Assembly (NCBI GenBank): GCA_050124795.1
Contig: JASFEO010000002.1
Location: forward strand, 26,797-90,796
Direction of reading: 5' to 3'
Length of the DNA: 64,000 nt
DNA from: Candidatus Pacearchaeota archaeon
Lineage (GTDB): Archaea; Nanobdellota; Nanobdellia; Pacearchaeales; GW2011-AR1
Under the pieces are notes generated by a model. That model saw only the letters and a program-made list of their open reading frames with translations, had not been told where the DNA came from and ran no database searches. Positions 1,114 through 51,056 of the stretch are shown here, piece after piece (position 1 is the first letter of the stretch; each line of letters opens with the position of its first letter). The position numbers were made by a program, and so were the translations under genes.

Positions 1114-1503
1114 TTATTTTTTTCTTAAAGAAATTATTTTAAAACCAAACTTTTCATAAACTCTGTCAGAGCTAATTATTTTGTTATCCTTTACAATTGC
1201 CATTAAAAGTGAATCAAAAATTGTCGCCCCTTTCTCAACATAATCACATGCTCTGAAAAAATCATTCCATGAAAAATTTTCTAGTTTTGAAATTCTTGAA
1301 ATCTGCAAGATTGTTTCTTTCAATGGGATATCTTCTCTTTTGCAAATAATCATAACTTCAGCAATAGTAAAAGGAGAAACCCATATATTGTCTTTTCTTT
1401 CATTATAAACTTTAATTGCTTTTTTCTTAAGCCAGTCAGAATCTTTCATAAGCGCTAAGAAAAAATCAGTGTCTGCGTAATTTCTTTTTTGCATCTTTTT
1501 CAA
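1114..1503 (-). CDS. vapC: PIN-domain toxin VapC
   Basis: 129 aa; N-terminal DTDFFLAL acidic PIN motif; overlaps upstream AbrB-like antitoxin ORF. Confidence 0.55.
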   Translation of the reverse strand: MKKMQKRNYADTDFFLALMKDSDWLKKKAIKVYNERKDNIWVSPFTIAEVMIICKREDIPLKETILQISRISKLENFSWNDFFRACDYVEKGATIFDSLLMAIVKDNKIISSDRVYEKFGFKIISLRKK

Positions 1504-1720
1504 TCTCCTCTCTTGCCTCTTTTTTTAATTTTTGAATTGATTTTTTCATTTTACCTTCCCCAAGTTCTCCTAATGCAAGAATCGGATCTTCCTTTACTGG
1601 TTGCAGACAAATTCCCGAAGAAGTAGCGCTAATAACAATTGTCTTATGCGCAAATTTTCTTCTCAACTTTTCAGGAATGTAAATTCTTCCATGTTTGTCA
1701 AAAGAAACTATTTTTTCCAT
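1466..1720 (-). CDS. vapB: AbrB/SpoVT/MazE-type antitoxin VapB
   Basis: 84 aa; FDKHGRIYIP swapped-hairpin signature; overlaps vapC start. Confidence 0.5.
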   Translation of the reverse strand: MEKIVSFDKHGRIYIPEKLRRKFAHKTIVISATSSGICLQPVKEDPILALGELGEGKMKKSIQKLKKEAREEIEKDAKKKLRRH

Positions 1721-10624: not shown

Positions 10625-11892
<1,268 letters not shown>

Positions 11893-16465: not shown

Positions 16466-17119
16466 ATGAAAACAAACAAACCTCTTGTTAAGCGAGTTGA
16501 ACTTGTGACAATTGAAGGTCATGATGAAATATCTGATGTCCTATATAGAGAAGAAAATGCAACTTACAGACTATATGACAATTTAACTAAACCAATGACT
16601 TTGCCTGAACTCTCAAAATATTCTGCAAAAGAAAAAGAAAAAGGAAATCCTTATGTTCCTAATTCTGAAGAATTGTGGAGTGTCTTTACTGCAATTGCAA
16701 ATTCAGAAAACCCTGAACTTATTTCAAGAGTTAGAGATGAATTAAGAGGCAAATGGATAAGAACATTAACTGCAATTGACTGGTATTCAAATAGAAATTC
16801 AAGAGTTATTCATAATGTCAAAACTCCAGATGCTTATTTTAAACAAAGAAAAGTACTCGGTGAAGATGGGTTTATCCATCAAGTTAAATCTAAAAAACTT
16901 CTTGAAAATGTTCTTGGAACAAATAATGTGAAGAAGATCAATAGTGTTTCTCAAAAAATAAATCAAACTCCAATGTATCAATGGAGAATAAATTCTAAAC
17001 CTGATAAAAAACTTAGAACAAGTGTGGAGCTCTACGCGGGTTCCGGCAGGTTGTTCCTGGATTGCGGCGGGGATCCCTTGGATGAGTGTCCTGCTTTCCG
17101 GGTATTAAGAGTTGATTAA
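16466..17119 (+). CDS. DGR target protein with C-terminal variable region
   Basis: 217 aa; no signal peptide; last 29 codons form the VR; C-terminus ...LDECPAFRVLRVD resembles the C-type-lectin-fold VR endings of DGR targets. Confidence 0.75.
   Translation: MKTNKPLVKRVELVTIEGHDEISDVLYREENATYRLYDNLTKPMTLPELSKYSAKEKEKGNPYVPNSEELWSVFTAIANSENPELISRVRDELRGKWIRTLTAIDWYSNRNSRVIHNVKTPDAYFKQRKVLGEDGFIHQVKSKKLLENVLGTNNVKKINSVSQKINQTPMYQWRINSKPDKKLRTSVELYAGSGRLFLDCGGDPLDECPAFRVLRVD
17018..17104 (+). repeat. DGR variable repeat (VR)
   Basis: 87 nt, 71/87 identical to TR; all 16 mismatches lie opposite TR adenines. Confidence 0.85.
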
Positions 17120-17431
17120 GTCTGACTGCATTGCTCGCTAGACATTGTTGAACCTAACTCTTTATTTTGTCGCGAAGCGCGAAAAATTTTTAAGAGACGC
17201 TTTCTTAATCTTTTTGCCCAGAAGAGTTTTTTCGTTTGAGAAGCGAGAGAACTTAATGGACTACACGCCGGTTAATCAGCGCATTATTAAGGTTTATTTT
17301 AAGCCATGAAATTCAACAGCGACAATTAGTAGCAATAAAAGTGAAAATCTGAAGTTGTGGTGCTTCCCTTGAAATCTCTTCATGGATTTCATTTGCCAGA
17401 AGATCTCTTTTAGAGAAGATTAATTGGCTAT

Positions 17432-17518
17432 AAAAGTGTGGAGCTCAACGCGAATTCCGACAGGTTGAACCTGAATTGCAACAGGAATCCCTTGAATGAG
17501 TATCCTGCTTTCCGAATA
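17432..17518 (+). repeat. DGR template repeat (TR), noncoding
   Basis: 87 nt with 28 A; in VR frame reads AAC/AAT at the diversified codons; lies in an intergenic region 327 nt after VR and 73 nt before the FKBP gene. Confidence 0.85.
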
Positions 17519-26468: not shown

Positions 26469-28130
26469 ATGAAAGCTAAAAATTTAACTTTGATAAGTTT
26501 AAGCATTTTAATAAGTTTAGTTCTAATGACTCTGGCAAGTGCAACTTTAACAATCTCATCTCTTGACTATCCGACAAGTGTTGATGATATTGAAGGCTCA
26601 TTCATATTCACTTTTAATATAACTGATACTTCAATAACCCCTATAAGTGTTACTTTTGCTGATTCTACAATTTCTTTTGGTTCTATTTCAATTACTGATT
26701 TAACTAATGAAGATTTAACAACTGCAAAACAAATAACAGGGGCAATTTCTAATTTTGCAGATCAAGGTGGGAACACAATGACTATCACAATTGTTGCAAA
26801 TGAAACAGAAGACCCAACTAATTTAGATTCTGAAACTTTTTCAGTAAACATTAATTTAACTATTCCTTCAGAAGTAACAGAGTGTGAATCAACTGGAAAC
26901 CCCGGAAGTGATTTAAGAATCAAAGAAATTGAATTTACAAACAAAGGAATGAAAATTGGAGACACAACAAAAGAATTTGGGGATGATGATGCATGGTTCC
27001 CTTTGGATGATATTGAAGTCGAAATCACAATTGAAAACAATGGAAACGACGACATAGATAATATTGAAGTTAATTGGGGATTATGGGATACCGAAGCAAA
27101 CGACTGGATAATCGAATTAGATGATGAAAAAGATTTTGACTTAAAAGATGATGATGAAGAAACATTGGCAATCTCATTCAACCTTGAAAGTTCATTAGAT
27201 ATTGACTTAGAAGATTTAGAAGACGGAAACCATTACAGATTTTATGTAATTGCAGAAGGAGAAAACACAGACATTGACGCAGATGTTTGTGAATATGATT
27301 ATGAAGATACAGAAATAGTAATTGAAAAAGACTTTGTAGTCTTGGATAATTTTGAATTTCCTGAAAGTGTTTCATGCGCAGATGAAGTTCAGATAATCGC
27401 AGACACCTGGAATATCGGAGACAGAGACCAGGATGATGTTTATATAAGAATTTATAACACAGAACTTGGAATCAACAATAAAATCGTGGACATCGGCGAC
27501 ATAGATGCATTTGACCATGAAGACTTAAACACAATAATTCAAATTCCGGAAGATGCAAAAGAAAAAATATACCAGCTTAACTTTGAGGTATATGATGAAG
27601 ATGATGATATTTATGAAACAGACTTTGACAATGATGACTCAAGTTTCTACATTCTCTTAAATGTTGCAAGCTGCAAAACCCCGGCAAAAGCAATTGTTTC
27701 AGCCACACTTGAATCAGGAGGGGTCGCAGGAGAAGAATTAGTTGTAAGAGCAACAATTGTAAATTCAGGAAGTGATACAACTTATAATTTGAACTTAGCA
27801 GGATTCAGCACATGGGCAGATTCAGGAAACTTTGATTCAAACACAGTAACTCTTGGAAAAGGTGAACAAAAAGATGTTCTAGCTACATTCCTTGTTAAAG
27901 AAGATGCTTCAGGTGAGCAAACTTTTGATATTGAAGTTTTATCAGACGGAGATTTTGTTTTAACTCAGCCAGTTGCAATAACAATCGAAGAAGCACCAAA
28001 AGGATTTTTATCAGGAATAACCGGAAATGCAATTGGAGGCGGAAATACATACTTGTGGATAATCGGCGCTCTAAATGTAATCCTTGTTGTTATAATTATA
28101 ATTGTTGCAATAAGAGTTGCAAGAAAATAA
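26469..28130 (+). CDS. acidic cell-surface protein with signal peptide and C-terminal TM anchor
   Basis: 553 aa; N-terminal signal; D/E/T-rich; CARDB-like segment; C-terminal hydrophobic helix plus RVARK. Confidence 0.6.
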   Translation: MKAKNLTLISLSILISLVLMTLASATLTISSLDYPTSVDDIEGSFIFTFNITDTSITPISVTFADSTISFGSISITDLTNEDLTTAKQITGAISNFADQGGNTMTITIVANETEDPTNLDSETFSVNINLTIPSEVTECESTGNPGSDLRIKEIEFTNKGMKIGDTTKEFGDDDAWFPLDDIEVEITIENNGNDDIDNIEVNWGLWDTEANDWIIELDDEKDFDLKDDDEETLAISFNLESSLDIDLEDLEDGNHYRFYVIAEGENTDIDADVCEYDYEDTEIVIEKDFVVLDNFEFPESVSCADEVQIIADTWNIGDRDQDDVYIRIYNTELGINNKIVDIGDIDAFDHEDLNTIIQIPEDAKEKIYQLNFEVYDEDDDIYETDFDNDDSSFYILLNVASCKTPAKAIVSATLESGGVAGEELVVRATIVNSGSDTTYNLNLAGFSTWADSGNFDSNTVTLGKGEQKDVLATFLVKEDASGEQTFDIEVLSDGDFVLTQPVAITIEEAPKGFLSGITGNAIGGGNTYLWIIGALNVILVVIIIIVAIRVARK

Positions 28131-28189: not shown

Positions 28190-28729
28190 ATGAACAAAAA
28201 AGAAAAAGAGGTTTATGGAATTCTCGCAAGATATCTTTTAATAATTTTTGCAGCCGCCTCAAACCTTTTTATTTTTTACTATATATTCACACCATTAACT
28301 GTTTATCATGTTTATTTTTTACTTCAGATTTTTTTAGATGTAAAATTGTCCGGTAATGTAATCTCCCTCGGCCATTATGCAATATGGATAATAAAAGCAT
28401 GCATTGCAGGTTCTGCATATTATCTTTTATTTATTTTAAATCTGTCAATTCCAAAAATAAATTTAAAAAAAAGATTAAAGATGATTTCTTTTTCATTTTT
28501 GGTTTTGTTAGCCGCAAATATTTTAAGAATAATAATTCTTGTTTTGCTTCTTGGTTCTTTTTGGTTTGACTTTACCCACAAACTTTTCTGGAATCTACTA
28601 AGCACAATTTTTGTCGTCGGAATTTGGTTTCTTGAAGTAAAATTATTTAAGATAAAAAAAATCCCTTTTTATGATGATATAAAAATCCTTTATAAAAACT
28701 CTTTCTTTAAGAAATCTAAGAGAAAATGA
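28190..28729 (+). CDS. polytopic membrane protein (possible minimal exosortase/archaeosortase-like)
   Basis: 179 aa, about 5 TM with conserved Cys and Arg in helices; follows a TM-anchored surface protein. Confidence 0.3.
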   Translation: MNKKEKEVYGILARYLLIIFAAASNLFIFYYIFTPLTVYHVYFLLQIFLDVKLSGNVISLGHYAIWIIKACIAGSAYYLLFILNLSIPKINLKKRLKMISFSFLVLLAANILRIIILVLLLGSFWFDFTHKLFWNLLSTIFVVGIWFLEVKLFKIKKIPFYDDIKILYKNSFFKKSKRK

Positions 28730-31525: not shown

Positions 31526-33889
31526 TTATGCAGTTGTAGTAACAAGAGTTGCACTTGTAGATGAAGTTCCCTTGTATTCTTTGCCTGTATCTACTGTTTG
31601 GGTAGTCAAGTATTTAGCAGCATTAACTGTATCTGCAGCTTCATAACCAGCAACAACTAAAGCAATCTTGCCAGTAGAGTATGCTCCACTAACACCTTTA
31701 ATCAGGAATTGTCCTGATCCTACTCCAGTTGCAGTTGTAAAGGCACTTCCACAAGTTCCTTGTGAAACACCCAATGCAGTCGCAGCAGCCGAATTAATGC
31801 AACTTCCACCAACAATAACTAAGTTCTTTGAACTTACACTGCTGACTTCAGTATCCTTAACAAGAACTTCTCCAAGTTGTGTGCCTGAACTAGTTGATCC
31901 ACTTGAACCAGCAGTAACAGTTGTACTAGGAGCAGTTACATAAACTTCCCCAAATGCTTCGTCGCCATGGTATGTAATCTGGAATTCATATTGGTCTCCG
32001 GATTTATCCCATAATAGTTCTGAGGCAAGAGCAGTATACTTGAAACTTCTCCATACTTTTGTACTTAGAATTTCATCAAAAGTAACTGATTCGTTTCCTA
32101 CATCACTTACATAAGCTTCTTTTGTAGAAGCAGAGTTCCAACCAAGTTGAGCAGTAATGTTCCCACCATCTCCGATATTACCATTCTTGTCTTCTTCACA
32201 GAAGATAAGATCATAAGTTGGTATATTATGCAAGGGTGTTGCTGTAAGATTCAAATAACCTGAACCTGCAGTAGCACTATCATAAGGTAGGAAAACTTCT
32301 AATCCTTCTTTTGAATAAAGAGTGTGGAAGTTTACACTTGTTCCACCTGTAATAGAAACTGTTTTTTGAGTTTTTTCAACTGTTCCAAGTGTTAGTTCTA
32401 CATTTCCTATTGAAGCGACATCATCAGGTTTTCCTTCTACCTTTACATCACTCCAAGAACCATCTTTTCTGTATTGGATTGTAGTTTTATTCACACTATT
32501 TTCTGTTTTGAAATTAGTTGCTCTCATTAAATAAGATTCTGCATTTGTTCCATCATTAAATGATGCTACAAAATAGTCATCTGTATCTCCATCAAAAACA
32601 ATAACATTTGACATGTTTGTTCTTAATTTATGAGTTGCATCTTTACCAATACCAGTCCAGTTCAAACTATCTCCATATAAAATAGCAATATCTTCAGTAC
32701 TATCTTTTAATGGAAAGTCCTCTAAGGTCATGTAAGTAGTTCCGCCATGTTTAACAGTAACCACTTCTTCAGTAGGATAAAGCATACCTGTAGTAGTTAA
32801 TTTAACTGCTTCAAAACCAGGCATTAAAACTTCACTATCTGGAGTCACGAATAAATCATCTTCTGCCTTCCATTCAATTACAATCGAACTAATTGTTGCA
32901 GGGTCTGCAGCGGTTGTAGTAATGAATGTTTTCATGTCAGAAATAGATTCATCATTTATCTCTATATCTGTATCATGTTTAAGGACTAATTTACCAGTTC
33001 CCACACTGAATTCAACAGTCTTTGTTCCTCCAGCGTAATCCTGAACATTAATTTCTTTAATTCCAACATAATCTCCGCCACTTAACTTCTGAGTTTCTGC
33101 AGCAGCTAAACTATTTGTTATTTCTCCGTCAACATTTAATTTAACTGAACTACTTCCAATAAAAGAGATAGAAACTTCGTGACCATTTACCGTAGCTGTT
33201 TCACCTTCTGATAAAGTAGTTGTTTGGGCAGAGTCAAGCAGGTTTATTGTAGTATTAGCTGTTGAACTTAATACGAAATATTCTTTTCCCATTAATTCAA
33301 TAGTTGTTGTATCAATATCATCCCATTCTGGCTCATCAGTAAAGTCAACTGTATAGTTTAATACATGAGCCGCGCTTGCGATTCTAATCCCGACTGTTGG
33401 TTCATCTGACTTATAATCATTGTCTTCAAACATTGCTAAAGTTAGATTAGCCATATCAATTTTCTGAGTATAGTCTTGTTCATCATTATCGCTATCAACA
33501 TATTTTCCATCTGCTAAAAGAACTGGAAGTCCGCTTCCAGGACTATCATCTGTAATTGCAGTTGCAACAATATCAGTTACTCCTTTACCTAATTGGAACT
33601 TTGTTGAAGATTTTTCTATCTTAACACTATCTCCTCCGCTTGTAGTTGATGTAGATGCACTGGTTCCGCCACCTAAGTAAGACTGCAAATTTGTCTGAAT
33701 GTTTCCTGCCTGGATTACATCAAGTGAAGAAACTCCTGAGCCAGTTCCATAAACAATAGCTACATTAGCGCTTCCTCCTGACACAAATGGTGCGGGATAA
33801 CTTGCAGCAGCAGCAAACCCAATAGTCGAAACAGCCATTAAACCACAACTTAAAACCGAAGTTATTTTTCTAAAGTTTAATTTTCTCAT
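31526..33889 (-). CDS. S-layer-like surface protein
   Basis: 787 aa; signal peptide ending AAAAS; YPAPFVSGGSANVAIVYG N-terminal motif; Thr/Ser/Gly-rich. Confidence 0.55.
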   Translation of the reverse strand: MRKLNFRKITSVLSCGLMAVSTIGFAAAASYPAPFVSGGSANVAIVYGTGSGVSSLDVIQAGNIQTNLQSYLGGGTSASTSTTSGGDSVKIEKSSTKFQLGKGVTDIVATAITDDSPGSGLPVLLADGKYVDSDNDEQDYTQKIDMANLTLAMFEDNDYKSDEPTVGIRIASAAHVLNYTVDFTDEPEWDDIDTTTIELMGKEYFVLSSTANTTINLLDSAQTTTLSEGETATVNGHEVSISFIGSSSVKLNVDGEITNSLAAAETQKLSGGDYVGIKEINVQDYAGGTKTVEFSVGTGKLVLKHDTDIEINDESISDMKTFITTTAADPATISSIVIEWKAEDDLFVTPDSEVLMPGFEAVKLTTTGMLYPTEEVVTVKHGGTTYMTLEDFPLKDSTEDIAILYGDSLNWTGIGKDATHKLRTNMSNVIVFDGDTDDYFVASFNDGTNAESYLMRATNFKTENSVNKTTIQYRKDGSWSDVKVEGKPDDVASIGNVELTLGTVEKTQKTVSITGGTSVNFHTLYSKEGLEVFLPYDSATAGSGYLNLTATPLHNIPTYDLIFCEEDKNGNIGDGGNITAQLGWNSASTKEAYVSDVGNESVTFDEILSTKVWRSFKYTALASELLWDKSGDQYEFQITYHGDEAFGEVYVTAPSTTVTAGSSGSTSSGTQLGEVLVKDTEVSSVSSKNLVIVGGSCINSAAATALGVSQGTCGSAFTTATGVGSGQFLIKGVSGAYSTGKIALVVAGYEAADTVNAAKYLTTQTVDTGKEYKGTSSTSATLVTTTA

Positions 33890-34340: not shown

Positions 34341-34694
34341 ATGGCAAAATCAAAAACACGGGAAATTACAATTAATACGTCGAGAGGAGGATTTTCTCTT
34401 TTTAAAAAATCTTCATCTTCAAAAAAAGATTATGATTTTTCAGGAGTCCTTGCATTAAGGCAGCTTTTGAGCAATGAAAAAGCAAGAATTTTGCATACAA
34501 TAAAAACTCAAAAACCAATATCAATTTATGGCTTGGCAAAAAAATTAAACAGAGGATTTAAATCAGTAAATGATGATATAAAACTCCTTAAAAGATTTGG
34601 ATTTATTGAACTTGTTGAAGAAAAAACTAAAAAAAGAATTAGACACAGACCAGAGATAATCGTAGACACAATGACAATTCATTTTAAAATCTAG
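34341..34694 (+). CDS. winged helix-turn-helix transcriptional regulator
   Basis: 117 aa; ARILHTIKTQKPISIYGLAKKLNRGFKSVNDDIKLLKRFGFIELVEE wHTH. Confidence 0.5.
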   Translation: MAKSKTREITINTSRGGFSLFKKSSSSKKDYDFSGVLALRQLLSNEKARILHTIKTQKPISIYGLAKKLNRGFKSVNDDIKLLKRFGFIELVEEKTKKRIRHRPEIIVDTMTIHFKI

Positions 34695-34749: not shown

Positions 34750-35274
34750 TTAATAATAAACATTAAAAATAATTTCAATATCCTCTTTTCCTAATTCCTG
34801 CAAGGAACTTTTATAATTATTTGTCGCATTCCCTTCACCAAATTCAAGCAAAATATCTCCTCTTGAAGAAATCTTTAAATTATACCCCTTTATCGGACTA
34901 TCTTCATAGACTTGCCAGGAATTTTCTATAATATTTTCCAAATCATCTTTCAAAATATCACATGTTTTTTGTTCATCAAGGCATTTCTCTTTTCTTTCAC
35001 AGGCAATAATCAGTTTTTCAATTGAATAATACTGCGGCTCATAACTATCTGCGCAATCTGTTGTATATTGCAAAAATGATTGAATAAAGCTCTCAATTTC
35101 ATAACTCTCAACATTTTCAAACTCTGGGTTCTTTAAAGAATACCCCAAAAATACTAATAACACAACCGCAACAATTATAATAATCAGCGCAAAACCAATC
35201 ATCTCTTCCTGCCCGGTTTTATTCTTTAACCAATTTCCAAAATTTCTCAATATTTTTTTAGATTTTTTTAGCAT
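34750..35274 (-). CDS. type IV pilin-like protein (class III signal peptide)
   Basis: 174 aa; KTGQEEMIGFALIIIIVAVVLLVF. Confidence 0.45.
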   Translation of the reverse strand: MLKKSKKILRNFGNWLKNKTGQEEMIGFALIIIIVAVVLLVFLGYSLKNPEFENVESYEIESFIQSFLQYTTDCADSYEPQYYSIEKLIIACERKEKCLDEQKTCDILKDDLENIIENSWQVYEDSPIKGYNLKISSRGDILLEFGEGNATNNYKSSLQELGKEDIEIIFNVYY

Positions 35275-35840
35275 TCTTCTCCATAATTATATTTTATCAT
35301 AATTTTTCCCACCTCGCATTTATCATAACTTCTTCCTTCATAAGTTTCCTTTCTGCACAAAGACACAAAATTTGAAACATAAACCCCTTCGCCTTCATCT
35401 TCACTTACCTTGATTACATTACAATCAGGATAATTTCCTCTGTCACACTCCCTGTCCTTGTCTTCAGGATAAATTTTTCTTATTTCAATATTTGTTACAT
35501 CCCAAAATCCTTTATATTCTTTCATGCTATCTTTCAAAATCAGGACTTTATCTGTGTCGATACAGTTCACCCTTGTGCCGCCAAATGCCTCTCCGCATGA
35601 AAACTCAGGAGAATTCGCAAGTTTTGTTGCAAGAAGCACAGCATTTTTCTCGCAAAGTTCTGTAGCAGATTTTTTTATTCCTGAAAACGAAATCACCAAA
35701 AGAAACATCCCCACAAGAACAAAAAACAAGGTCACAGCTATCAACATAAAAGTCATTTGTTGTATTTTCATTTGCCCCCTCTTTTTTTCTTTTTTCATTT
35801 TACCATAATTTGCAGCTTGCAAGATTATTTTCTCGTCCAA
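35268..35840 (-). CDS. type IV pilin-like protein
   Basis: 190 aa; KKRGQMKIQQMTFMLIAVTLFFVLV. Confidence 0.5.
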   Translation of the reverse strand: MDEKIILQAANYGKMKKEKKRGQMKIQQMTFMLIAVTLFFVLVGMFLLVISFSGIKKSATELCEKNAVLLATKLANSPEFSCGEAFGGTRVNCIDTDKVLILKDSMKEYKGFWDVTNIEIRKIYPEDKDRECDRGNYPDCNVIKVSEDEGEGVYVSNFVSLCRKETYEGRSYDKCEVGKIMIKYNYGEEC

Positions 35841-36726
35841 CCTCTTCAGAAATCATGCTAATAACCTTAAGCTCCTTTGAACTCTCAAGACCCTCGGCAA
35901 TTGTTGCAAGACTTAATAAATTTAAATTAGAATCACAATCCTTTTTTAAAACGAATTTAGACTTGCCCCCATATAAATTTGCAAGACTATTCAATCTTTT
36001 CATAAGCCTTTTTATCTGGCACTCATAAACCTCTTCTTCTGAAAATATCGCAGCATACATTAATGCGCCCCCGTAAAAATCAATTGTTCCATTATTTTTA
36101 AAAACCTGTTTTGTTGCAAGATTAACCTTTATGTCGCAGCTTCCTGAAAAACAAACCTTTATTGCATTTTTCGAACAATTCCCAACAAGCAAATTTGGCT
36201 GATTAAGAAATAAAAGTTCTTCCTCAATTTCCCCAGGCGAATTTAAAAAACAATACTCCTCCTCTGAAGAAGTGATAATAATTAAATCACTTACCTTAAA
36301 TGGCATGAAAAATGGTTTTGAAAACACATAAAATTTCTCCCCTTCTGTATACCCCTCTGAAAAAATATATTTATTTGAAAAACCAGGATTAATATTTGTT
36401 TCACTCCACTGATTAAAATTCTTTTGTGAAACTTTTATTATTTGCCTTCCAAATTCTCCGTTCGTGTTGCACAAATTATAAATTCTTGTCTCCGTAGGAA
36501 AACTCAGTGAATTTGTCTTGCCGGATTCAAAACCAGTCTCAAGAGGATTTAATAAAACTCCAATCTCCTTTCCTGTCTTAGCATCCTGAATTGTCTGCTC
36601 TGTTTTAATTAACTTTGTTGAAAGAAAAATAGCTAGGAACAAAATAACTGCTCCGACTAAAAGCGCAAAAAGCCATGCAAAAGAAATCTGCAAATAACCC
36701 CTTTTATTTCTAATCCTCTTTTTCAT
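35800..36726 (-). CDS. type IV pilin-like protein
   Basis: 308 aa; NKRGYLQISFAWLFALLVGAVILF. Confidence 0.45.
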   Translation of the reverse strand: MKKRIRNKRGYLQISFAWLFALLVGAVILFLAIFLSTKLIKTEQTIQDAKTGKEIGVLLNPLETGFESGKTNSLSFPTETRIYNLCNTNGEFGRQIIKVSQKNFNQWSETNINPGFSNKYIFSEGYTEGEKFYVFSKPFFMPFKVSDLIIITSSEEEYCFLNSPGEIEEELLFLNQPNLLVGNCSKNAIKVCFSGSCDIKVNLATKQVFKNNGTIDFYGGALMYAAIFSEEEVYECQIKRLMKRLNSLANLYGGKSKFVLKKDCDSNLNLLSLATIAEGLESSKELKVISMISEEVGRENNLASCKLW

Positions 36727-36780
36727 GTAATAATTAAATAAAAAAACTTTAAGAATGTTTTTATGGTTTGTTTTAAATTT

Positions 36781-37278
36781 TTATCTCTCAATAATAACTC
36801 CTTCCTCGCCATAATCTCTTTTTATTGTTAATATAACTTTCCCGTCAATATTCTCAATACAATAAGGATTTTCCTTCCTTGTGATGTTTTCTATATTAAT
36901 ATGTTTTATTTCAACTGCATTAAGACCTTGCGCAGAACCAATCGGATAAAAAATCAAATTCTCAAATTCATAATAAACCTGCCTTAATTTTATAAACAAA
37001 TCCTGATTATCTCCTCTTGAAGGCGCAGAAAAATCAATAAAACATGCAAGCTCAACTTTCCTCGGCAATTTATATCCGTCAGGATCCCTAAGAGAACCCG
37101 AGCCTCTCCAAATTTTATCAATATCATTTTCTAAATCTTCCTTAAATATCAATACCTTGCTTTGACTCTGGCTTTGAAGTAGAAGTTTAATCACGTAAAA
37201 TGCAAATGTCAAAAAAACAATTATTAAAATTATTGAAAAAATCATTCCAAAAGATAATTTCATTTGTCCTCTTTTCAT
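36781..37278 (-). CDS. type IV pilin-like protein
   Basis: 165 aa; MKRGQMKLSFGMIFSIILIIVFLTF. Confidence 0.5.
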   Translation of the reverse strand: MKRGQMKLSFGMIFSIILIIVFLTFAFYVIKLLLQSQSQSKVLIFKEDLENDIDKIWRGSGSLRDPDGYKLPRKVELACFIDFSAPSRGDNQDLFIKLRQVYYEFENLIFYPIGSAQGLNAVEIKHINIENITRKENPYCIENIDGKVILTIKRDYGEEGVIIER

Positions 37279-37317
37279 AAATAAAATAAATAATCAGGAC
37301 TTATAAATTTTAGTGAA

Positions 37318-38748
37318 TTAAAAATTTTTCTCACAAATATACTCCCCCCACGATGTTTGGTAAACGCACATATTATCTGAATCGCAAGACTCCTGTTCTT
37401 CAAAATTCCCTTGCATAGAATCTCTCATTAAATCTTCTAAATAATGCTCCATATACTCTTTATTAATTTTGCAGGTTACATCTTTTTCTATAGGTGAATC
37501 AACTCTGTGCAAAATACATTTTTCTGATTCAATACCTTTTATTTCCATAAAGGAAGTTAAAGTTATTGTCCCGTCTGTATCGGAGGACTGAACATTTCTT
37601 TCATATGAAACTTTCGCAAGCCTGCATTCAATTGCAAGATTTTTAAAACAATTAATATCTCCTTCACAATCAACAACCTCTTCTGCATACTCGCAATCTA
37701 TTTCCTTGTTTGGTTCATTATAAAATGTATCGCATGAATTTAAATCCCTGCATTCCCTTATTTTTTTTCTATTTACACAAAAACTCCAATTACCGCATGC
37801 CCAATCTTCAACACACTCTTCTTCATCTAAATCACACACTCTTTCTCTGTTTGGCTTACTTAATATACTCCCGCAATTATTTAAATCTTCACAATTTCTT
37901 GTTTGTTTGCCTTCAACACAAGAACTCCAATTTTCACACATCCAACTCTCAGTGCAATTAATTTCTTCATCACTAGAAGTGCAATTTCTAATCATCGCAG
38001 GTTTATCCTCGATTATCTCACAAGAATCAATAGCACTGCAATCTCTCATTTGAGTTCCGTCTATACAAGAACCCCAGTTTTCGCAAAACCATTTTCCAAC
38101 ACAAGTTGAATTATCTGTAAAATTAATTGGAACATTCACGGAGTTATTTACTAACCTCTCTAATTTATCCAAATTATCTGCAGTTGATGCATTCCGAATA
38201 TTTTTTTCTAACTCAGGTAAATCTTCTTCTGAAAATTTCTCTCTTGCTTTTTCAATAACACTATTTTTCCTTTCTTCAAACTTTTGTTTTTCCTCTTCAT
38301 AAATTCTTCTCATATAAACCTGCGGCACACCATTATTAATTCCAGCCAACTTAACAATAATGTCAGAAAGACCATCACTATTAATATCAACCCTTATCTC
38401 CTCTCCGATTTTTATATCCAATTCAATGGGCTCACTATGAATAACTAAACTAATTGAATCAAGGCCGACTGAATTTATTTTTATAAAATGCTCTTCATCA
38501 CCGACTGTAAACTCTGCTTGTTTGTTTTCCTTTAACTCAATTGTCGCGCCCTCCACAAAAGCAGTATCAGAAATTGTTTCATCAGATAAATTCACATAAA
38601 TAAAAATAACTAATCCAAAAATCAACAATGCAGGAATAATAAACATAAGCCAGATTTTCCAATTCGAACTCTTTTCAGGATAATCAGTATATCCATACTC
38701 CTCTTTTCCACCTTCATAATCATTCATCGGATAATAAATAAAATTCAT
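37318..38748 (-). CDS. membrane-anchored protein with three tandem Cys-rich repeats
   Basis: 476 aa; N-terminal TM; repeats CxxxWxCENW(S/G)SCxxGxQxRxCxxxxxC at three positions. Confidence 0.5.
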   Translation of the reverse strand: MNFIYYPMNDYEGGKEEYGYTDYPEKSSNWKIWLMFIIPALLIFGLVIFIYVNLSDETISDTAFVEGATIELKENKQAEFTVGDEEHFIKINSVGLDSISLVIHSEPIELDIKIGEEIRVDINSDGLSDIIVKLAGINNGVPQVYMRRIYEEEKQKFEERKNSVIEKAREKFSEEDLPELEKNIRNASTADNLDKLERLVNNSVNVPINFTDNSTCVGKWFCENWGSCIDGTQMRDCSAIDSCEIIEDKPAMIRNCTSSDEEINCTESWMCENWSSCVEGKQTRNCEDLNNCGSILSKPNRERVCDLDEEECVEDWACGNWSFCVNRKKIRECRDLNSCDTFYNEPNKEIDCEYAEEVVDCEGDINCFKNLAIECRLAKVSYERNVQSSDTDGTITLTSFMEIKGIESEKCILHRVDSPIEKDVTCKINKEYMEHYLEDLMRDSMQGNFEEQESCDSDNMCVYQTSWGEYICEKNF

Positions 38749-38788
38749 TATAAAAATATTTCTATAAATTTTATTTTAGAAAATTTTC

Positions 38789-40891
38789 TTAAAACGCCCG
38801 AACTTCGATACTGCAAACATTCGACGGCTGAGGAGAATTTCCATAATTGTCTTTGCATTTAATATAAAGATTTGTCTTTGTATTCCAGTCTGTAAAATGT
38901 TCAAGCCCTTCAGAAGTTGCCATTGTTGTTCCGTCGTCAAACAAATAACCGCAGTCAGTAGTGTCATAAACACATTCTGCTTCTTCATTAGTAATTATTT
39001 TTAAATACGGCTCATCATGATATGCTCTCACAATCAAAGGCGCATCATTATCTGACTCAACAATAAAATTAATTTCCTTTGTTTCTGAATTTCCTCCGAG
39101 GTCAATACACTTTATAAAATATTTATAATCCCCTGCTGACAGCCACAATTCCTGTGAGTGCTCATAAGAAATTGTATTATAAAACATTACATAATTCTCT
39201 TCATCATCAGAACTGTAAAAACATGTTGACTCTCCTTCCTTATACCCTGCAGAAGTCTTTGCCCTTAATGTCACCTTCACTGCCTCGCTTGAATCTTTTA
39301 TTGTTTCATTATCTGGTTCAACCTCGTCAATCACTAAAGGCTGTGTCCCAAGTAATATAAATTTGTAAGATTCTGTATTCACATTTCTATCGCTTGTTTC
39401 AAGTGGCTGATCCTTGCATCTAAAATAAAATTCATTTTCAAAATTATTTTTTAATCCTGTCAAAGTTGTCGAGCACGGATAAAGTGACTGCGAATTCATT
39501 TCTTGTACACTGCTTGAGCAGCTCATTTCATTTTCCATGTCATCATAACCTTGGTCTAAATGACTCCACTTGCATTCAGCAGGCTCATTAATATAGACTT
39601 CCAAATCAACTGAACTCTGATTATAACTAATTGGCATGCCGTTTATTAAACTTGTTCCGACGATTAAAGGCGGGGTTGTGTCAGGACCCTCTTCAACACA
39701 GAACTTAAAAACAAAATTCGCAATATTTACATTCCCGTTTGCATCCTGGCATCTTGTATATAATTCAAACTGGCCGTTATTATTCAAAGTAATATTTTCA
39801 TCTTCAAGATTGTCAGGCCCCGGAAGGCTCATTGCCTGAGTATGATTATACTTCAATAAAGAATCATCTCCAAAATAATATTCCATCTCATCAAACGAGT
39901 CCTTTCTTAAATAATCTATCTTGCATTTTGCAGGTTCATCAACAGTTATCCCGAATGTAAAAGGAGTAAATGCTTTTGCGCATCCCTCATCAGAATTCTG
40001 GTTTATAATTTTCACTCCTCTGTCTGGCGGAGAAATCGCATTATCAGGAGTATATTTATATCCGTCGAAAAGAACATCTGAATTTGGTCCTATAATTGGC
40101 GGGCCAACATCTTTTGGATTAACCCATATGCATTTTTCCTGTGTTGTTCCCGGATTTATTAATTCACATGCCTGCCCCAAACTTCTGCACTGATATTCTG
40201 AACAAGGCAAACTTTGCTCATTGCACTTTTCACAACTGCTCCCCCCTGTTGCAGCATCCCAAGGGTTACAATCATATGTAATAATTTTTTTCTTAATCTT
40301 TGAATAACTTAAAACATAAATAATAATTGCTACAGCAATTCCAATCCCAAGCGCCCATCCAGTGCTTAATCCAAGATTCCAGATTCCATTCGGACCAAAT
40401 AAAGTATATGCTCCTTTTCCAACAAAATATCCCCATGAGGCAGCTGTAGACGCAGCACTAACAACATTTGAATCAAGACCAAGAAATCCTCCGATTAATT
40501 GAACAATTCCATAAACCAAGACCGCGCGGTATGCTCCCTGAAGTATCCCTGATGCAGAATATCCCCAACCAGTTTGGGTTGTTCCTGGCCCAAAAAAATG
40601 TTCCCATGCTACTCCCGCATAACCATGTGTTGGAGTCCCACTTGAAGAAATCCCTTTTAAAATTTCATCATATCTTGCTTTTTCTTTAGGAGTTAAAGAA
40701 GAATAATCTTTTCTCGCTGCAGTTAGGGTTTCCTCGTTAATCGCACTAACAGATTTCACTTCACTTCCCACAATATAAGAAATACTAATTATATTAACAA
40801 CTAAAATAACTATCTGTAAAAATGATAATGCTCCTCTTTTATGCATAAGAAGAATTAAGAAATTATGTTTTATAAATATTTCATTTGTCAA
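38789..40891 (-). CDS. large pilin-like / adhesin protein with class III-like signal
   Basis: 700 aa; HKRGALSFLQIVILVVNIISISYIV; a central hydrophobic segment; Cys-rich C-terminal half. Confidence 0.45.
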   Translation of the reverse strand: MTNEIFIKHNFLILLMHKRGALSFLQIVILVVNIISISYIVGSEVKSVSAINEETLTAARKDYSSLTPKEKARYDEILKGISSSGTPTHGYAGVAWEHFFGPGTTQTGWGYSASGILQGAYRAVLVYGIVQLIGGFLGLDSNVVSAASTAASWGYFVGKGAYTLFGPNGIWNLGLSTGWALGIGIAVAIIIYVLSYSKIKKKIITYDCNPWDAATGGSSCEKCNEQSLPCSEYQCRSLGQACELINPGTTQEKCIWVNPKDVGPPIIGPNSDVLFDGYKYTPDNAISPPDRGVKIINQNSDEGCAKAFTPFTFGITVDEPAKCKIDYLRKDSFDEMEYYFGDDSLLKYNHTQAMSLPGPDNLEDENITLNNNGQFELYTRCQDANGNVNIANFVFKFCVEEGPDTTPPLIVGTSLINGMPISYNQSSVDLEVYINEPAECKWSHLDQGYDDMENEMSCSSSVQEMNSQSLYPCSTTLTGLKNNFENEFYFRCKDQPLETSDRNVNTESYKFILLGTQPLVIDEVEPDNETIKDSSEAVKVTLRAKTSAGYKEGESTCFYSSDDEENYVMFYNTISYEHSQELWLSAGDYKYFIKCIDLGGNSETKEINFIVESDNDAPLIVRAYHDEPYLKIITNEEAECVYDTTDCGYLFDDGTTMATSEGLEHFTDWNTKTNLYIKCKDNYGNSPQPSNVCSIEVRAF

Positions 40892-40911
40892 AAATTCTTA
40901 AAGAATAAAAA

Positions 40912-41265
40912 TTATTGTATAATCGGCTTTGCATTTCCATCTTTATCATAAATAATACATTCTTCTTTATCACAAACTTCCCATCCTGCTCCTTTGCCGG
41001 TAATAGTCCCTTCGTAATCTTGTTTAGCGCTTTCAAATGCTGCATCTATTTCTTTCTTTCCCATATGTATCTTAAGCTCGTTTTCTCGTTGATATCTGCC
41101 TGATTGCATAAAAGCAGGAGCATGGTCATAAAAGTCGTTTTCAACCCCCCTTACAATTTGCTCAAAACAACCATAACACATACTAACTGTTGGAATAACA
41201 ACTAATGCTGTTGTATTTCTTATTAGTTTACCTAAGCTTATTTTCATGCTTTTTCTAAGAATCAT
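40912..41265 (-). CDS. small secreted/membrane protein
   Basis: 117 aa; hydrophobic N-terminus. Confidence 0.3.
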   Translation of the reverse strand: MILRKSMKISLGKLIRNTTALVVIPTVSMCYGCFEQIVRGVENDFYDHAPAFMQSGRYQRENELKIHMGKKEIDAAFESAKQDYEGTITGKGAGWEVCDKEECIIYDKDGNAKPIIQ

Positions 41266-41324
41266 AAGTATTTAAACCTTTCGTTTTTGTTGTTATCCCA
41301 AAGGAGTGTCAAAAATTCTTACTT

Positions 41325-42815
41325 TCAATACCCAGGCAAACCCAGATAATTTCTACTGTCCCCGCAGTCTGTAATTGATGTGCAAATTTGTTTCATCTTT
41401 GCTTTCCATGAATCTAACAAGCACTCGCAATTCAAAATGCATTTGCTTCCTCCAACCATTTTTTTCCTGATTAAAACAACGCAGGTTGCATCTCCCATTG
41501 AACATAAAGAATTCACATCCCCGCTTGATTCCCAAAAATCAACACCCGGAGAATAAAGCGGCACACATGCCCCCCCGCTTTGTTTTACTAATCCCGGAGT
41601 GTCTCCTTGTTTTGGAACCCATCCTGCATCAATCCATTTGCAATCCCTTTTATCTTCATCCTCGCAATTTCTCTTATTTTGCTGAGAATAGCATTCCTGC
41701 CAGCGGTTCACTCTGCATGCAGCAGTTTTAAACCCATTAACTTCTGACTGAAGACAAACTTCCTGGCGATAATCTGCACAAGACTCTATACTGACTTCAC
41801 CATTATAACAAACTAACCTAAAATTTCTGCTTCCCGGAAGATTATCATCAACCCCCTTTGCATCAGCGCACCATGTTTCCCCGTGCTTATATTTTTCCCC
41901 TTCATAAACACAATCAAGGTCATGGCAAATATTATCTCCATATATCGGTGAGATTGAAGTCTTTGTCTTGCATGTGCTTCCAAGATAATAATTGCAATTC
42001 CCGCAGATTCTCGAATCTGCATTCCCCTCGTCATTATTAAATCCGCAGCTGTCTTCCTTTCCAACTATTTTTGACCAATAACTCTTATCCCTTATTCTGG
42101 TTGCATCATAAATGTTCGCTAAGTTCCCGCAGCTATCTAAAAAGTAAACCTCATCACGTCCTTCAACACAAGTTGTTTGTTCAGTTGGCCCGCAATTAGT
42201 TCCAAGACTTTCATCAGAACAAAGATAATCTTCATAAAAATCTGCCTCTGTTCCGGAGCCTTCCAATTCCTTGCATTCCTTTTTTGTTATAAGTAAGCAA
42301 GTCTTTTCAAATTCCTTTTCAAAAACACACGCACCCTTGACATCTGAAGTCGCGCTCTCAATGCATTCAATCTCATTACCAAAATTTGTCTTAAAAAGAA
42401 TTTCCAATCCATATAATGAAGATAATCTCTTGCATCTTGTCTGCGTTACATACGCGGCCTGATCTCCAATAAGACAGCAACCTAATTGGCACTGCGGCAA
42501 ATCTTCTGGCTCTCCTGCTTCCCACACCCCTCCATTATCTTCACAACTTTTCTGAGGAGTGTTTGGGTCACACGTTCCTTCCTGGCTGTCATAGCATGTT
42601 CCCTTTTTGCAATAACTTGTTGCCTCGCATGAGGTAGGCGCTTTTTTAAAATCCTCATCACAATTTTCTTCAGGAGCATTCTGGCACCATGCCCCCCCGG
42701 AACCATCTGACTCTAAAGAAGTTTTCTCACAACAATAAGAAACTTCAGAATTTGCAAAACTCATTAATCCGACTAACAAAACCACTAAACTAATTATTAA
42801 AAATATTTTTTTCAT
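41325..42815 (-). CDS. Cys-rich secreted protein
   Basis: 496 aa; Sec signal MKKIFLIISLVVLLVGLMSFA; about 50 Cys. Confidence 0.5.
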   Translation of the reverse strand: MKKIFLIISLVVLLVGLMSFANSEVSYCCEKTSLESDGSGGAWCQNAPEENCDEDFKKAPTSCEATSYCKKGTCYDSQEGTCDPNTPQKSCEDNGGVWEAGEPEDLPQCQLGCCLIGDQAAYVTQTRCKRLSSLYGLEILFKTNFGNEIECIESATSDVKGACVFEKEFEKTCLLITKKECKELEGSGTEADFYEDYLCSDESLGTNCGPTEQTTCVEGRDEVYFLDSCGNLANIYDATRIRDKSYWSKIVGKEDSCGFNNDEGNADSRICGNCNYYLGSTCKTKTSISPIYGDNICHDLDCVYEGEKYKHGETWCADAKGVDDNLPGSRNFRLVCYNGEVSIESCADYRQEVCLQSEVNGFKTAACRVNRWQECYSQQNKRNCEDEDKRDCKWIDAGWVPKQGDTPGLVKQSGGACVPLYSPGVDFWESSGDVNSLCSMGDATCVVLIRKKMVGGSKCILNCECLLDSWKAKMKQICTSITDCGDSRNYLGLPGY

Positions 42816-43180
42816 TTTAATTCTCCATCCAGATTTTCCCGTATCATTTTCTTTTCTTTAATCTTTTCATAAGCATACCCTATTAATGCTCCAAGAACTA
42901 TGTAAAACCCTAATATAAATATTACTGCAAGAATCCCTTTCGCACTTGTCCCAAGATTTTTCAAAAAACCTATTTTCACAATCGAAGAAGGAAACCCCAG
43001 AAGTTGGATATATTTTATCCAAAAACAATTAAAAAAAGTTTCTTTACCGTCAATGCATGCAAACCTGTCAAAATTTGGCAAATAATTTACAACAAAAAAA
43101 TAAACAAGACTAAAAAAAACTCCAATAATCCCGCCGCTAATCCAGCATTCTCCTTTTTTTACCTTATCATCTTCTTTCAT
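42812..43180 (-). CDS. membrane protein
   Basis: 122 aa, 3 TM. Confidence 0.35.
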   Translation of the reverse strand: MKEDDKVKKGECWISGGIIGVFFSLVYFFVVNYLPNFDRFACIDGKETFFNCFWIKYIQLLGFPSSIVKIGFLKNLGTSAKGILAVIFILGFYIVLGALIGYAYEKIKEKKMIRENLDGELK

Positions 43181-43953
43181 AATATCACCACATCTGTTCT
43201 ATACCCCGGAGGCCATGCAACACTTCTGGAAGCAAACTGAAACTTCTCATCTGTATTCCTGTCAGTCAAAACATAAATCGTTGTCCCGTCAGTTTGCTTT
43301 TGCTTTTCAACCTTGACATCATGATAATAATTCATATACAATGTGGTCTCTGAATCCCCATACTCTGCTTCCCACGATAAAATGCTATTTGCAATGCTTA
43401 ATAATTCATAAAGATTTTTATCAAAAGAAATTTTAAAAGATTCATAATTCTCAGTTGATTCTCTCTCAAGAGTTAAAGTATTATTAAAAATTACAGAAAC
43501 TTCCCCCGGCGTAATCTCAACTCCCATCTCTGCCCTCTTCAAATTAACAGAATATCTCTTTCTTTCATAACTTTCAACAAGGGAATCAAAACATTCATCT
43601 GCAGTCTCTTCAATATACTTTTTAATCTCTGTTTCAATGTGCCTCTTCAACAAAGGCTCCTGCATCACGCATGTTAAATAATATTCATTTGTATAACAAA
43701 GATATCCGATTTTCTCATCATTCTTCAAAAAATAAAATTTAGGTTTAATATATCCTCCATGAATTGATAATTCCGCAATTGAATCTTCAACTTCATCCTC
43801 AATGCAATTCCTGATAAATGCTGAAGGAGTTTTTGCCTCTGTTTCAAAATTTGTCTTTATATCCGGATAAAACATATAAATTAAAATTCCCAAAACCACA
43901 ATTATAATCCCAACAATTATAAAAATAGTCACTTGCCCCTTTTTATTTTCCAT
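43177..43953 (-). CDS. type IV pilin-like protein
   Basis: 258 aa; NKKGQVTIFIIVGIIIVVLGILIYMF. Confidence 0.5.
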   Translation of the reverse strand: MENKKGQVTIFIIVGIIIVVLGILIYMFYPDIKTNFETEAKTPSAFIRNCIEDEVEDSIAELSIHGGYIKPKFYFLKNDEKIGYLCYTNEYYLTCVMQEPLLKRHIETEIKKYIEETADECFDSLVESYERKRYSVNLKRAEMGVEITPGEVSVIFNNTLTLERESTENYESFKISFDKNLYELLSIANSILSWEAEYGDSETTLYMNYYHDVKVEKQKQTDGTTIYVLTDRNTDEKFQFASRSVAWPPGYRTDVVIL

Positions 43954-45284: not shown

Positions 45285-46052
45285 ATGTCTAAAGTAATTG
45301 TAATAACATCCGGAAAAGGAGGAGTTGGAAAGACAACAACTGCAATAAATTTAGGCGCTGCTATGAATTATTTTGGCAAAGATGTATTGGTTGTCGACGG
45401 AAATTTGTCAACTCCCAACATTGGAATACATTTAAATTCACCTGAAGTGCCGGTAAGTTTAAACCATGTGTTGTCAAAAAAAGCAGACATTAACGAGGCT
45501 GTTTATGAACATTATTCAGGAATGAAAATTATCCCCTCTTCATTATCAATAAAAGAATTAAAGAAAATCAGGCCCCAAAAATTAAAAGATTTTAAAGAAG
45601 ATTTTGGAAAAATTTCTGACTATATAATTATTGACAGCGCCGCGGGATTAGGTGAAGAAGCAACAAGCGCAATTGAAGCAGCAGATGAATTAATTTTAGT
45701 TACAAACCCTGAAATACCTGCAATAACTGATGCATTAAAAACTGTGAAATTAGCTGAAACAATGAACAAGCCTGTAAAAGGAATAATAATCACCCGTGTA
45801 AGAAAAGATGAAATTGAAATGCAGCCCGACGCTGTCAAAGAAATGCTTGAGGCACAAATTTTAGGAATGATTCCTGAGGACATGACAATAAAAAAATCAC
45901 TTAACTTAAAAGATGCAGTTGTTCACATTTACCCAAAAAGCAAATCCGCACGTGCTTACAAAGAAATCGCAGCAAAAATCCTTGATGTAAATTATGACTC
46001 AGACATAGACAAGCCAAATTTTTGGTTTAGAATTTTTTCAAGAGATTATTAA
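45285..46052 (+). CDS. minD: MinD/ParA-family cell division ATPase
   Basis: 255 aa; deviant Walker A ITSGKGGVGKTTTA. Confidence 0.85.
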   Translation: MSKVIVITSGKGGVGKTTTAINLGAAMNYFGKDVLVVDGNLSTPNIGIHLNSPEVPVSLNHVLSKKADINEAVYEHYSGMKIIPSSLSIKELKKIRPQKLKDFKEDFGKISDYIIIDSAAGLGEEATSAIEAADELILVTNPEIPAITDALKTVKLAETMNKPVKGIIITRVRKDEIEMQPDAVKEMLEAQILGMIPEDMTIKKSLNLKDAVVHIYPKSKSARAYKEIAAKILDVNYDSDIDKPNFWFRIFSRDY

Positions 46053-50241: not shown

Positions 50242-50493
50242 TTAACTAACCTTCATCCCAACCTTGACATCTTTCTCAGGCGAGATAACAGAATCATTAA
50301 CCAATGGAACAACCAAATTATTTTCCTTAATCCCGACAATTATTTTCTTCCCCTTTTTCACATTAATTTTTTGTTTCAATTCCAGAACTTTTTCACCAAC
50401 ATCAACTTTAATATTTTCTTCATCTATTTCAACAACTTCTCCGACTATTAAATCAACTTTCATCCAATCTTCAAAATTAATTTCTGGTTTCAT
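50242..50493 (-). CDS. stand-alone tRNA-binding domain protein (Trbp111/CsaA-like)
   Basis: 83 aa; INFEDWMKVDLIVGEV OB-fold start. Confidence 0.6.
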   Translation of the reverse strand: MKPEINFEDWMKVDLIVGEVVEIDEENIKVDVGEKVLELKQKINVKKGKKIIVGIKENNLVVPLVNDSVISPEKDVKVGMKVS

Positions 50494-51056
50494 TTTTTAT
50501 AAACTGATTTAATGAATGATCTTATTTGTGAAGCGACAATTTCAATAAGCTCGTTTAACTTTAAAACAAACACAGGGTTAATATCAACTTTCTCATTTAA
50601 TAATTTTTCTTTTACAGAAATTCCCCTTGACAAAAGGATTGATTTTATTTTTGAGTTTAGTTCATAATTTAATAAGTTTCTTGAATTTTTGCAAACAATA
50701 ACTCCTAATTGCAACTCAGCATTTTTTAATGAAGATAAAAACAAATCAACATCTGTTGAATCAATTAATTTATATTTAATCTGCAAACCCAATTTAACTT
50801 CTCCTAAAAATCCCACACTAAAATTAAGAAATCCATCAATACCTCTATCTCTGGTTTTTGGAGTTTTAACTAATGCTATATTCATATACTCAAAAAATTC
50901 ATAGATTATTTCTTCAAATGTGAAACCTTTATTTTCCGAGGATTCAATTCTTTTTTTAACTCTTTCAAAAATAAACTCTTTAATTTTTTCTTCTTCAAAA
51001 CAAATGTCTTCATCAAAGGTTATTTCTTCTTCTAAACTTGAAAAAAGATTATTCAT
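50490..51056 (-). CDS. Mrr-like restriction-endonuclease-fold protein
   Basis: 188 aa; TRDRGIDGF...GEVKL...QIKYK PD-(D/E)xK-like. Confidence 0.4.
   Translation of the reverse strand: MNNLFSSLEEEITFDEDICFEEEKIKEFIFERVKKRIESSENKGFTFEEIIYEFFEYMNIALVKTPKTRDRGIDGFLNFSVGFLGEVKLGLQIKYKLIDSTDVDLFLSSLKNAELQLGVIVCKNSRNLLNYELNSKIKSILLSRGISVKEKLLNEKVDINPVFVLKLNELIEIVASQIRSFIKSVYKK

Follow-up and report, generated by a model that had tools for sequence, protein, structure and literature searches.

Minor-pilin tip complexes such as GspHIJK and PilVWX-PilY1 are encoded by four to five consecutive, unequal pilin-like genes together with a large non-pilin partner, and the N-terminal helices of their subunits are conserved. 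In the bindosome of Sulfolobus, the substrates are solute-binding proteins, and the genes for the Bas ATPase and the membrane components are clustered with them. Pacearchaeota are abundant, uncultured, ultra-small archaea that are presumed to be symbionts; to our knowledge, neither their cell surface nor the way in which they contact other cells has been characterized. Here we describe a cluster of genes for pilin-like and Cys-rich surface proteins at positions 34,750-43,953 of a 64,000-nucleotide stretch of a Candidatus Pacearchaeota genome (GenBank assembly GCA_050124795.1, contig JASFEO010000002.1), hereafter the window. The EppA-processed pilins of Methanococcus maripaludis have leaders of 5-13 residues that end in Gly and are followed by Gln at position +1 (PMC3875500). 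Both EppA-type (PMC3875500) and bacterial pilins carry a Glu at +5. Pilin loci that lie apart from the ATPase and TadC loci are documented in Euryarchaeota (PMC4858521; PMC3875500). Type IV filament systems 1 and 4A have been reported in some DPANN and Nanoarchaeota (preprint 10.64898/2026.04.22.720090), and the cognate pilins of nanoarchaeal genomes could not be identified (Makarova et al. 2016, PMC4858521).

The window is archaeal, with about 31% G+C and genes for PolB, PCNA, FtsZ, MetRS, and ribosomal proteins. Ten minus-strand open reading frames (ORFs) fill the cluster and are numbered from g1 (43.9 kb) to g10 (34.7 kb) (Table 1). They are packed closely or overlap, which indicates an operon; the frame of g2, for example, overlaps both g1 and g3 by 4 nt. 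We propose that g1, g3, g5, and g7-g10 form the core of a lineage-wide operon for a type-IV-filament-like surface structure whose assembly machinery is encoded elsewhere, a reading to which we give about even chances of being correct. The operon probably encodes a core cell-surface apparatus rather than a variable adhesin island. An earlier note on this DNA had listed six prepilin-like N-termini in what it took to be six consecutive genes. All six are present in minus-strand ORFs of the cluster (g10, g9, g8, g7, g5, and g1), but the genes are not consecutive, since g6 separates g7 from g5, and g2-g4 separate g5 from g1. The core proteins match no described protein family in Pfam, NCBIfam, or the PDB sequences, and we found no description of the cluster in the searchable literature.

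In g1, g7, g9, and g10, the motif K-[KR]-[GA]↓Q (the arrow separates positions -1 and +1), with about 20 hydrophobic residues behind it, hardly varies. Across roughly 28-35 species per family, position -3 is mostly Lys, -2 is mostly Lys or Arg, and -1 is Gly or Ala, rarely Ser. In g1, all 30 sequences have Gly or Ala at -1 and Gln at +1; Gln also occupies +1 in 30 of 30 sequences of g9, 32 of 32 of g10, and 28 of 32 of g7. The g10 homologues read K-[KR]-[AG]↓QEEM, with Glu at +2 and +3. A related motif, K-[KR]-G↓[YF]-L-Q, is conserved in g8, and a looser one, K-[KR]-G, occurs in g5, where Gly is found at -1 in 19 of 28 sequences. With 4-10 residues (21 in the g10 of this genome), the basic leaders are short. 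The proteins g1, g7, g8, g9, and g10 all have the class III arrangement of a basic leader ending in [KR]-[GAS] and a hydrophobic helix some 20 residues long.

The motif is restricted to these families. We fetched 80 related loci, and 82 loci with 5206 six-frame ORFs (about 1.1 Mb) were scanned. A strict search for [KR][GAS]Q joined to a hydrophobic stretch gives 190 instances; 186 of them lie in orthologues of g1, g7, g8, g9, and g10 and 4 elsewhere, which is far beyond chance. In addition, conservation is higher from +1 to +25 than in the remaining sequence in g7 (0.81 versus 0.57), g8 (0.77 versus 0.66), g9 (0.84 versus 0.66), and g10 (0.80 versus 0.59). The difference is marginal for the N-terminal segment of g1 (0.70 versus 0.66), and in g5 this segment is less conserved than the remainder (0.59 versus 0.66). 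An N-terminal segment that is the best-conserved part of the protein, as in g7-g10, would be expected of pilin alpha1-N helices and would be unusual for plain membrane anchors. When profiles of the gene families were compared with each other (hhalign), the families were linked through the N-terminal region only; pilins that belong to one system likewise resemble each other there. The AlphaFold2 (AF2) model of g8 (predicted local distance difference test, pLDDT, 87.7; predicted template modeling score, pTM, 0.81) has a 44-residue N-terminal helix, then an antiparallel beta-sheet, and a C-terminal helical bundle. The class III pattern pointed out in the earlier note is therefore strengthened by its conservation over species, while no pilin hidden Markov model (HMM) or pilin structure matches these proteins.

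A phmmer search with the window proteins showed that the order g1-g3-g5-g7-g8-g9-g10 is kept in about 40 of 48 long loci from other species, and this fixed order spans genomes from soil, groundwater, lake, and marine samples. The common arrangement is PCNA, g1, an optional pair consisting of a g5 paralogue of about 1250 residues and a second g1, followed by g3, g5, g7, g8, g9, g10, a divergent winged-helix gene of the HVO_A0114 type, and g12. The winged-helix gene occupies the same position in nearly all loci, and its product is a possible regulator. More than 820 relatives of g5 were found, with 45-73% identity, all in metagenome genomes labelled Pacearchaeota, Nanoarchaeota, or Woesearchaeota; a scan with one genome per species gave 501 matching stretches, paralogues included. 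For g8, we obtained 1105 relatives and 1636 clusters at 50% identity. A comparison of the g8 profile with a representative library returned only full-length orthologues among the matches listed and no bridge to known pilins.

The conservation level of the core is close to that of a housekeeping gene. In 22 genomes, the median identity to the window protein is 67% for PCNA, 54% for g1, 49% for g3, 50% for g5, 43% for g7, 51% for g8, 56% for g9, and 46% for g10. With 43-56% for the core against 67% for PCNA, these surface proteins evolve little faster than a replication protein. Conversely, g2, g4, and g6 are not conserved. Together with the linker of g5, they are the only varying parts of the system and hence the better candidates for host-specific functions.

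About two-thirds of the related genomes have the extra pair, a second g1-like gene and the g5 paralogue of about 1250 residues, upstream of g1-g3-g5 (for example, loci L002, L003, L008-L010, and L012). Over 611 residues, the paralogue shares 31% identity with g5; it has a 680-residue insertion past its first helix and no K-R-G motif. The window does not contain this pair.

The two large conserved proteins, g5 and g3, differ from the prepilin-like ones. The earlier note regarded g5 as a giant pilin of 700 residues. We reject this assignment because g5, which has 685 residues, is a multi-helix membrane protein with further membrane helices past the first, has four immunoglobulin (Ig)-like domains, and keeps the motif only loosely. 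Its ORF extends to 40891 through an upstream TTG. In the AF2 model of g5 (pLDDT 86), one N-terminal helix is joined by a variable linker to a pack of three helices, after which come a Cys knot and four Ig-like beta-sandwich domains. A fold search with this model brought up tandem Ig, FN3, and cadherin chains of a generic kind and nothing else. The Ig domains are placed outside the cell because g5 has four conserved N-x-S/T sequons and paired Cys. The linker is extracellular as well, because some homologues contain LysM there and the paralogue carries its 680-residue insertion at this site. Protein g3 has the Sec signal and the Cys-rich composition ascribed to it in the earlier note, although with 43 Cys rather than about 50. 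About 37 of these Cys are invariant, the mature N-terminus VSYCCEK is kept, and a membrane anchor is absent. In the cluster as a whole, the even Cys counts and the conserved N-x-S/T sequons point to extracellular domains.

Among the described systems, the Epd pili of M. maripaludis (EpdA-E, DUF361/PF04021, "system 1") resemble this locus in several respects. Both have a short basic leader ending in Gly, a Gln at +1, and then a hydrophobic helix, and both have several pilin-like genes for proteins of 130-300 residues in one operon. The leader length, the Lys or Arg at -2, the Gly, Ala, or Ser at -1, and the Gln at +1 correspond to the EppA-type pilins (PMC3875500). The Epd ATPase and platform genes are located at other loci (PMC3875500; preprint 10.64898/2026.04.22.720090), as would be the case here. 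In contrast, the proteins described here have no Glu at +5 and no match to PF04021 or PF07790, their head domains are unrelated to those of Epd pilins, and g3 and g5 have no counterpart. Moreover, eppA lies inside the epd operon, whereas the present operon contains no peptidase gene.

By analogy, the gene set with its large non-pilin partner and conserved N-terminal helices may also be compared with the tip complexes GspHIJK and PilVWX-PilY1. However, neither in sequence nor in fold do the proteins resemble GspK, PilX, or PilY1, and at the structural level this covers GspK/PilX-type minor pilins and the PilY1 beta-propeller; the signal is archaeal, and a major pilin gene was not found here. 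The bindosome and other non-pilin class III proteins of Sulfolobus share with the cluster the surface location, the globular ectodomains, the class III signals, and possibly continued attachment to the cell, but a Pfam scan found no solute-binding domains in the window proteins. Euryarchaeal pilin sets (PMC4858521) are similar in that they are encoded away from the PilB/PilC modules, often have an S-layer-like gene beside them, and include all-beta, Ig-like minor pilins of 250-550 residues. Finally, SlaB-like S-layer stalks combine a Sec signal, beta-sandwiches, a coiled coil, and a C-terminal anchor. Of these, g5 shares only the tandem beta-sandwiches; its membrane helices are N-terminal and it has no coiled coil, so that it does not classify as a SlaB-like stalk.

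Several observations weigh against a type-IV-filament-like structure. A Glu at +5 was never seen in g1, g7, g9, or g10, where Phe, Ser, Gln, or Val/Ile/Met occurs instead, and the EppA-type (DUF361) combination of Gln at +1 with Glu at +5 is consequently absent. None of the ten window proteins has a match in Pfam or NCBIfam, and the pilin models PF04021 (Class_IIIsignal) and PF07790 (Pilin_N) and their NCBIfam equivalents gave nothing at E ≤ 1; in a Pfam scan of 125 family members, no pilin model appeared at E ≤ 0.1. PDB profile searches with g1, g3, g5, g7, and g8 yielded nothing significant, the best pilin match being PilE1 (E = 1.2, from g7). Structural models cover two of the proteins, g8 and g5. 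The head domain of the g8 model has no neighbor in a fold search of the PDB. No small major-pilin-like protein was found near the cluster. In agreement with the earlier note, no PilB/ArlI-type ATPase, TadC-type platform protein, or A24 prepilin peptidase is encoded by window ORFs of at least 200 residues. The same machinery is absent from about 10 kb past each window end, where the flanks contain only ribosomal, SMC, and primase genes, and from up to 10 kb around the cluster in 80 other genomes. Across the 82 loci, ORFs of at least 250 residues contain no T2SSE Walker-A motif, and a scan for GxGD multi-helix peptidases gave only spurious matches inside g5 paralogues. The literature on DPANN conflicts: beside the reports of filament systems cited above, one preprint describes the components of type IV pili as missing from DPANN genomes, and FlaI/J/K are recorded in a comparative study for Nanoarchaeota and Woesearchaeota and not for Pacearchaeota.

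These observations leave room for other explanations. The class III proteins, cleaved or not, may stay membrane-anchored through their N-terminal helices and form a fixed envelope complex instead of a filament. Such a complex could support or anchor the surface layer, with the Ig stalk of g5 spanning the space below it, or be a bindosome-like assembly. We regard this as the main rival, although a rather unlikely one. It would agree with the near-housekeeping conservation and single-copy synteny, with the four tandem Ig-like domains on the membrane protein g5, with the lack of an assembly ATPase near the cluster in 80 genomes, and with the class III signals known on non-pilin surface proteins of Sulfolobus (bindosome references in PMC3875500). 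It would also agree with the constant neighbor g12, a Sec-signal surface protein without a membrane anchor of its own. However, PCNA is an equally constant neighbor, and the adjacency may merely reflect a frozen gene order; g12 is a separate transcription unit beyond the divergent winged-helix gene and has no Pfam match to back an S-layer identity. The very high conservation of the hydrophobic segment fits the packing of helices in a fiber at least equally well. Another explanation, which we regard as decidedly unlikely, is that the N-termini are ordinary uncleaved signal anchors on unrelated single-pass ectoproteins, and that the K-K-G-Q motif merely sets their topology. The absence of pilin HMM and pilin fold matches, the failure to find a peptidase in the window, its flanks, or the 82 loci, and the degenerate motif in g5 and its absence from the 1250-residue paralogue, which has the same helix, would all be expected in that case. 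Nevertheless, positive charge suffices for topology, and an invariant small residue at -1 and Gln at +1 over four unrelated head domains would be left unexplained, as would the restriction of the motif to these families and an anchor that is conserved above the ectodomain.

The earlier note took the cluster for a surface locus for adhesion or attachment, as expected in episymbiotic DPANN; one version of this idea is an island that evolves rapidly and fits the symbiont to its own host. The products are indeed extracellular and Cys-rich with Ig-like domains, the variable inserts g2, g4, and g6 are tolerated, the g5 linkers vary and contain LysM in some homologues, and Pacearchaeota are presumed symbionts. 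Conversely, seven genes are syntenic and 43-56% identical over the lineage where PCNA is 67% identical, and their order is fixed in genomes from four kinds of habitat. Such near-PCNA conservation does not fit host-specific adhesins and argues for a general machine, variation being confined to the accessory genes. This version is therefore highly improbable, and host adhesion as a function is a conjecture. The candidacy of g6 as a core adhesin was dropped because the protein is nearly an orphan.

Returning to the type-IV-filament-like structure, we propose that the five subunits g1 and g7-g10 would be synthesized as precursors carrying class III signal peptides, and that a prepilin-type peptidase encoded elsewhere would cut between Gly/Ala and Gln. 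The hydrophobic N-terminal helices could then pack into a short pilus or pseudopilus, or into a minor-pilin-type tip or priming complex. Of the non-pilin partners, g5 may serve as the stalk or as the base in the membrane, and g3 may be a module with a distal or adhesive role. It is likely that g1 pairs with g5, because the two families have been duplicated together; in many genomes, g1 is duplicated jointly with g5-like genes. The ATPase and platform, if they exist, would be encoded in trans, an arrangement already known for the pilin loci of Methanococcus and Haloferax. A more far-reaching idea is that seven families without relatives outside the lineage form an undescribed apparatus, present across Pacearchaeales, that uses pilin-type helices but is assembled without a canonical ATPase, platform, or peptidase, and through which the cells would generally touch other cells or exchange material with them. 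This holds only if the genomes really lack the machinery, as one preprint claims for DPANN, and we consider it unlikely. If this absence is true, the cluster would represent a new way to use pilin-type helices.

The cluster comprises seven conserved surface protein families that are now annotated as "hypothetical" in hundreds of species, and it places pilin-like proteins in a lineage whose pilus genes were reported as missing or unidentified. The operon is thus a concrete target for metaproteomics, for antibody labeling or cryo-tomography on enrichments, and for multimer modeling.

Table 1. Genes of the cluster and its conserved neighbors (window coordinates; the arrow separates positions -1 and +1)
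Gene	Coordinates	Strand	Length (residues)	Description	N-terminus	Conservation
g1	43177..43953	-	258	prepilin-like (MENKKG↓QVTIFII...)	NKKGQVTIFIIVGIII	conserved
g2	42812..43180	-	122	small membrane protein		accessory
g3	41325..42815	-	496	Sec-type signal peptide, secreted, 43 Cys		conserved core
g4	40912..41265	-	117	function unassigned		accessory
g5	38789..40846 (from ATG)	-	685	identical to NCBI PVJ67_01385	HKRGALSFLQIV	conserved core
g6	37318..38748	-	476	membrane-anchored		accessory insert, lineage-specific
g7	36781..37278	-	165	prepilin-like (MKRG↓QMKLSFGMIFS...); two invariant Cys	KRGQMKLSFGMIF	
g8	35800..36726	-	308	prepilin-like (KRG↓YLQISFAWLF...)	NKRGYLQISFAWLF	
g9	35268..35801 (ORF to 35840)	-	~177 (from ATG)	prepilin-like (MKKEKKRG↓QMKIQQMTFML...); eight Cys	KKRGQMKIQQMTFMLIA	
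g10	34750..35274	-	174	prepilin-like (..KNKTG↓QEEMIGFALIII)	KTGQEEMIGFALIII	
Winged-helix gene	34341..34694	+		HVO_A0114 family (Pfam PF25212, E = 4.5e-16); divergent		conserved neighbor
g12	31526..33889	-	787	Sec-signal surface protein		conserved downstream neighbor, context only

The accessory genes have few relatives. A single weak relative of g2 and none of g4 was found among the 82 loci. As the earlier note described, g6 is membrane-anchored and has Cys repeats (26 Cys, including three C-x2-W-x-C-x-N-W-x2-C repeats), but it falls outside the conserved system. Despite sitting inside a highly conserved operon, it is a near-orphan: among 5.8 billion proteins, 3 relatives were found, which are 100%, 65%, and 36% identical to it, and phmmer found no g6 in the related loci. 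A Pfam scan of g12 gave no match, and its designation as "S-layer-like" is an unverified label from the earlier note.

A gene for a MinD/ParA-family ATPase (45285-46052, plus strand) adjoins PCNA. FleN/MinD partners have been proposed for euryarchaeal pili (Makarova et al., PMC4858521). We dropped this gene as a FleN-type partner because the adjacency is not kept in related loci.

Other features of the window are located away from the cluster. A diversity-generating retroelement signature spans 16466-17518, with an 87-nt repeat pair at 17018-17104 and 17432-17518. The first copy forms the 3' end of an ORF at 16466-17119 (217 residues, no Pfam match). The copies differ at 16 positions (12 A/G, 3 A/T, and 1 A/C), and the second has A at all 16, which identifies it as the template repeat and the first as the variable repeat. 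Between the repeats, an RT-16 RNA (Rfam RF03019, 84 bits) is found at 17218-17436. An ORF of 199 residues at 11293-11892 (plus strand), 5.5 kb from the retroelement, has a match to the reverse transcriptase model RVT_1 that is confined to the second half of the profile (positions 106-204 of 205, E = 6e-15) and is probably its truncated or mis-started reverse transcriptase.

A multi-helix membrane protein of 179 residues is encoded at 28190-28729 (plus strand) and shows a weak exosortase/archaeosortase match (PF09721, E = 0.0012, below the curated cutoff). Its neighbors are a DedA/VTT protein and a surface protein of 553 residues with a weak CARDB match (26469-28130). At 1114-1720 (minus strand), a PIN-domain gene and a small upstream partner look like a toxin-antitoxin pair. 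Amid many short unannotated ORFs at 46-53 kb, the one at 50490-51056 (minus strand) encodes an Mrr-type restriction endonuclease domain.

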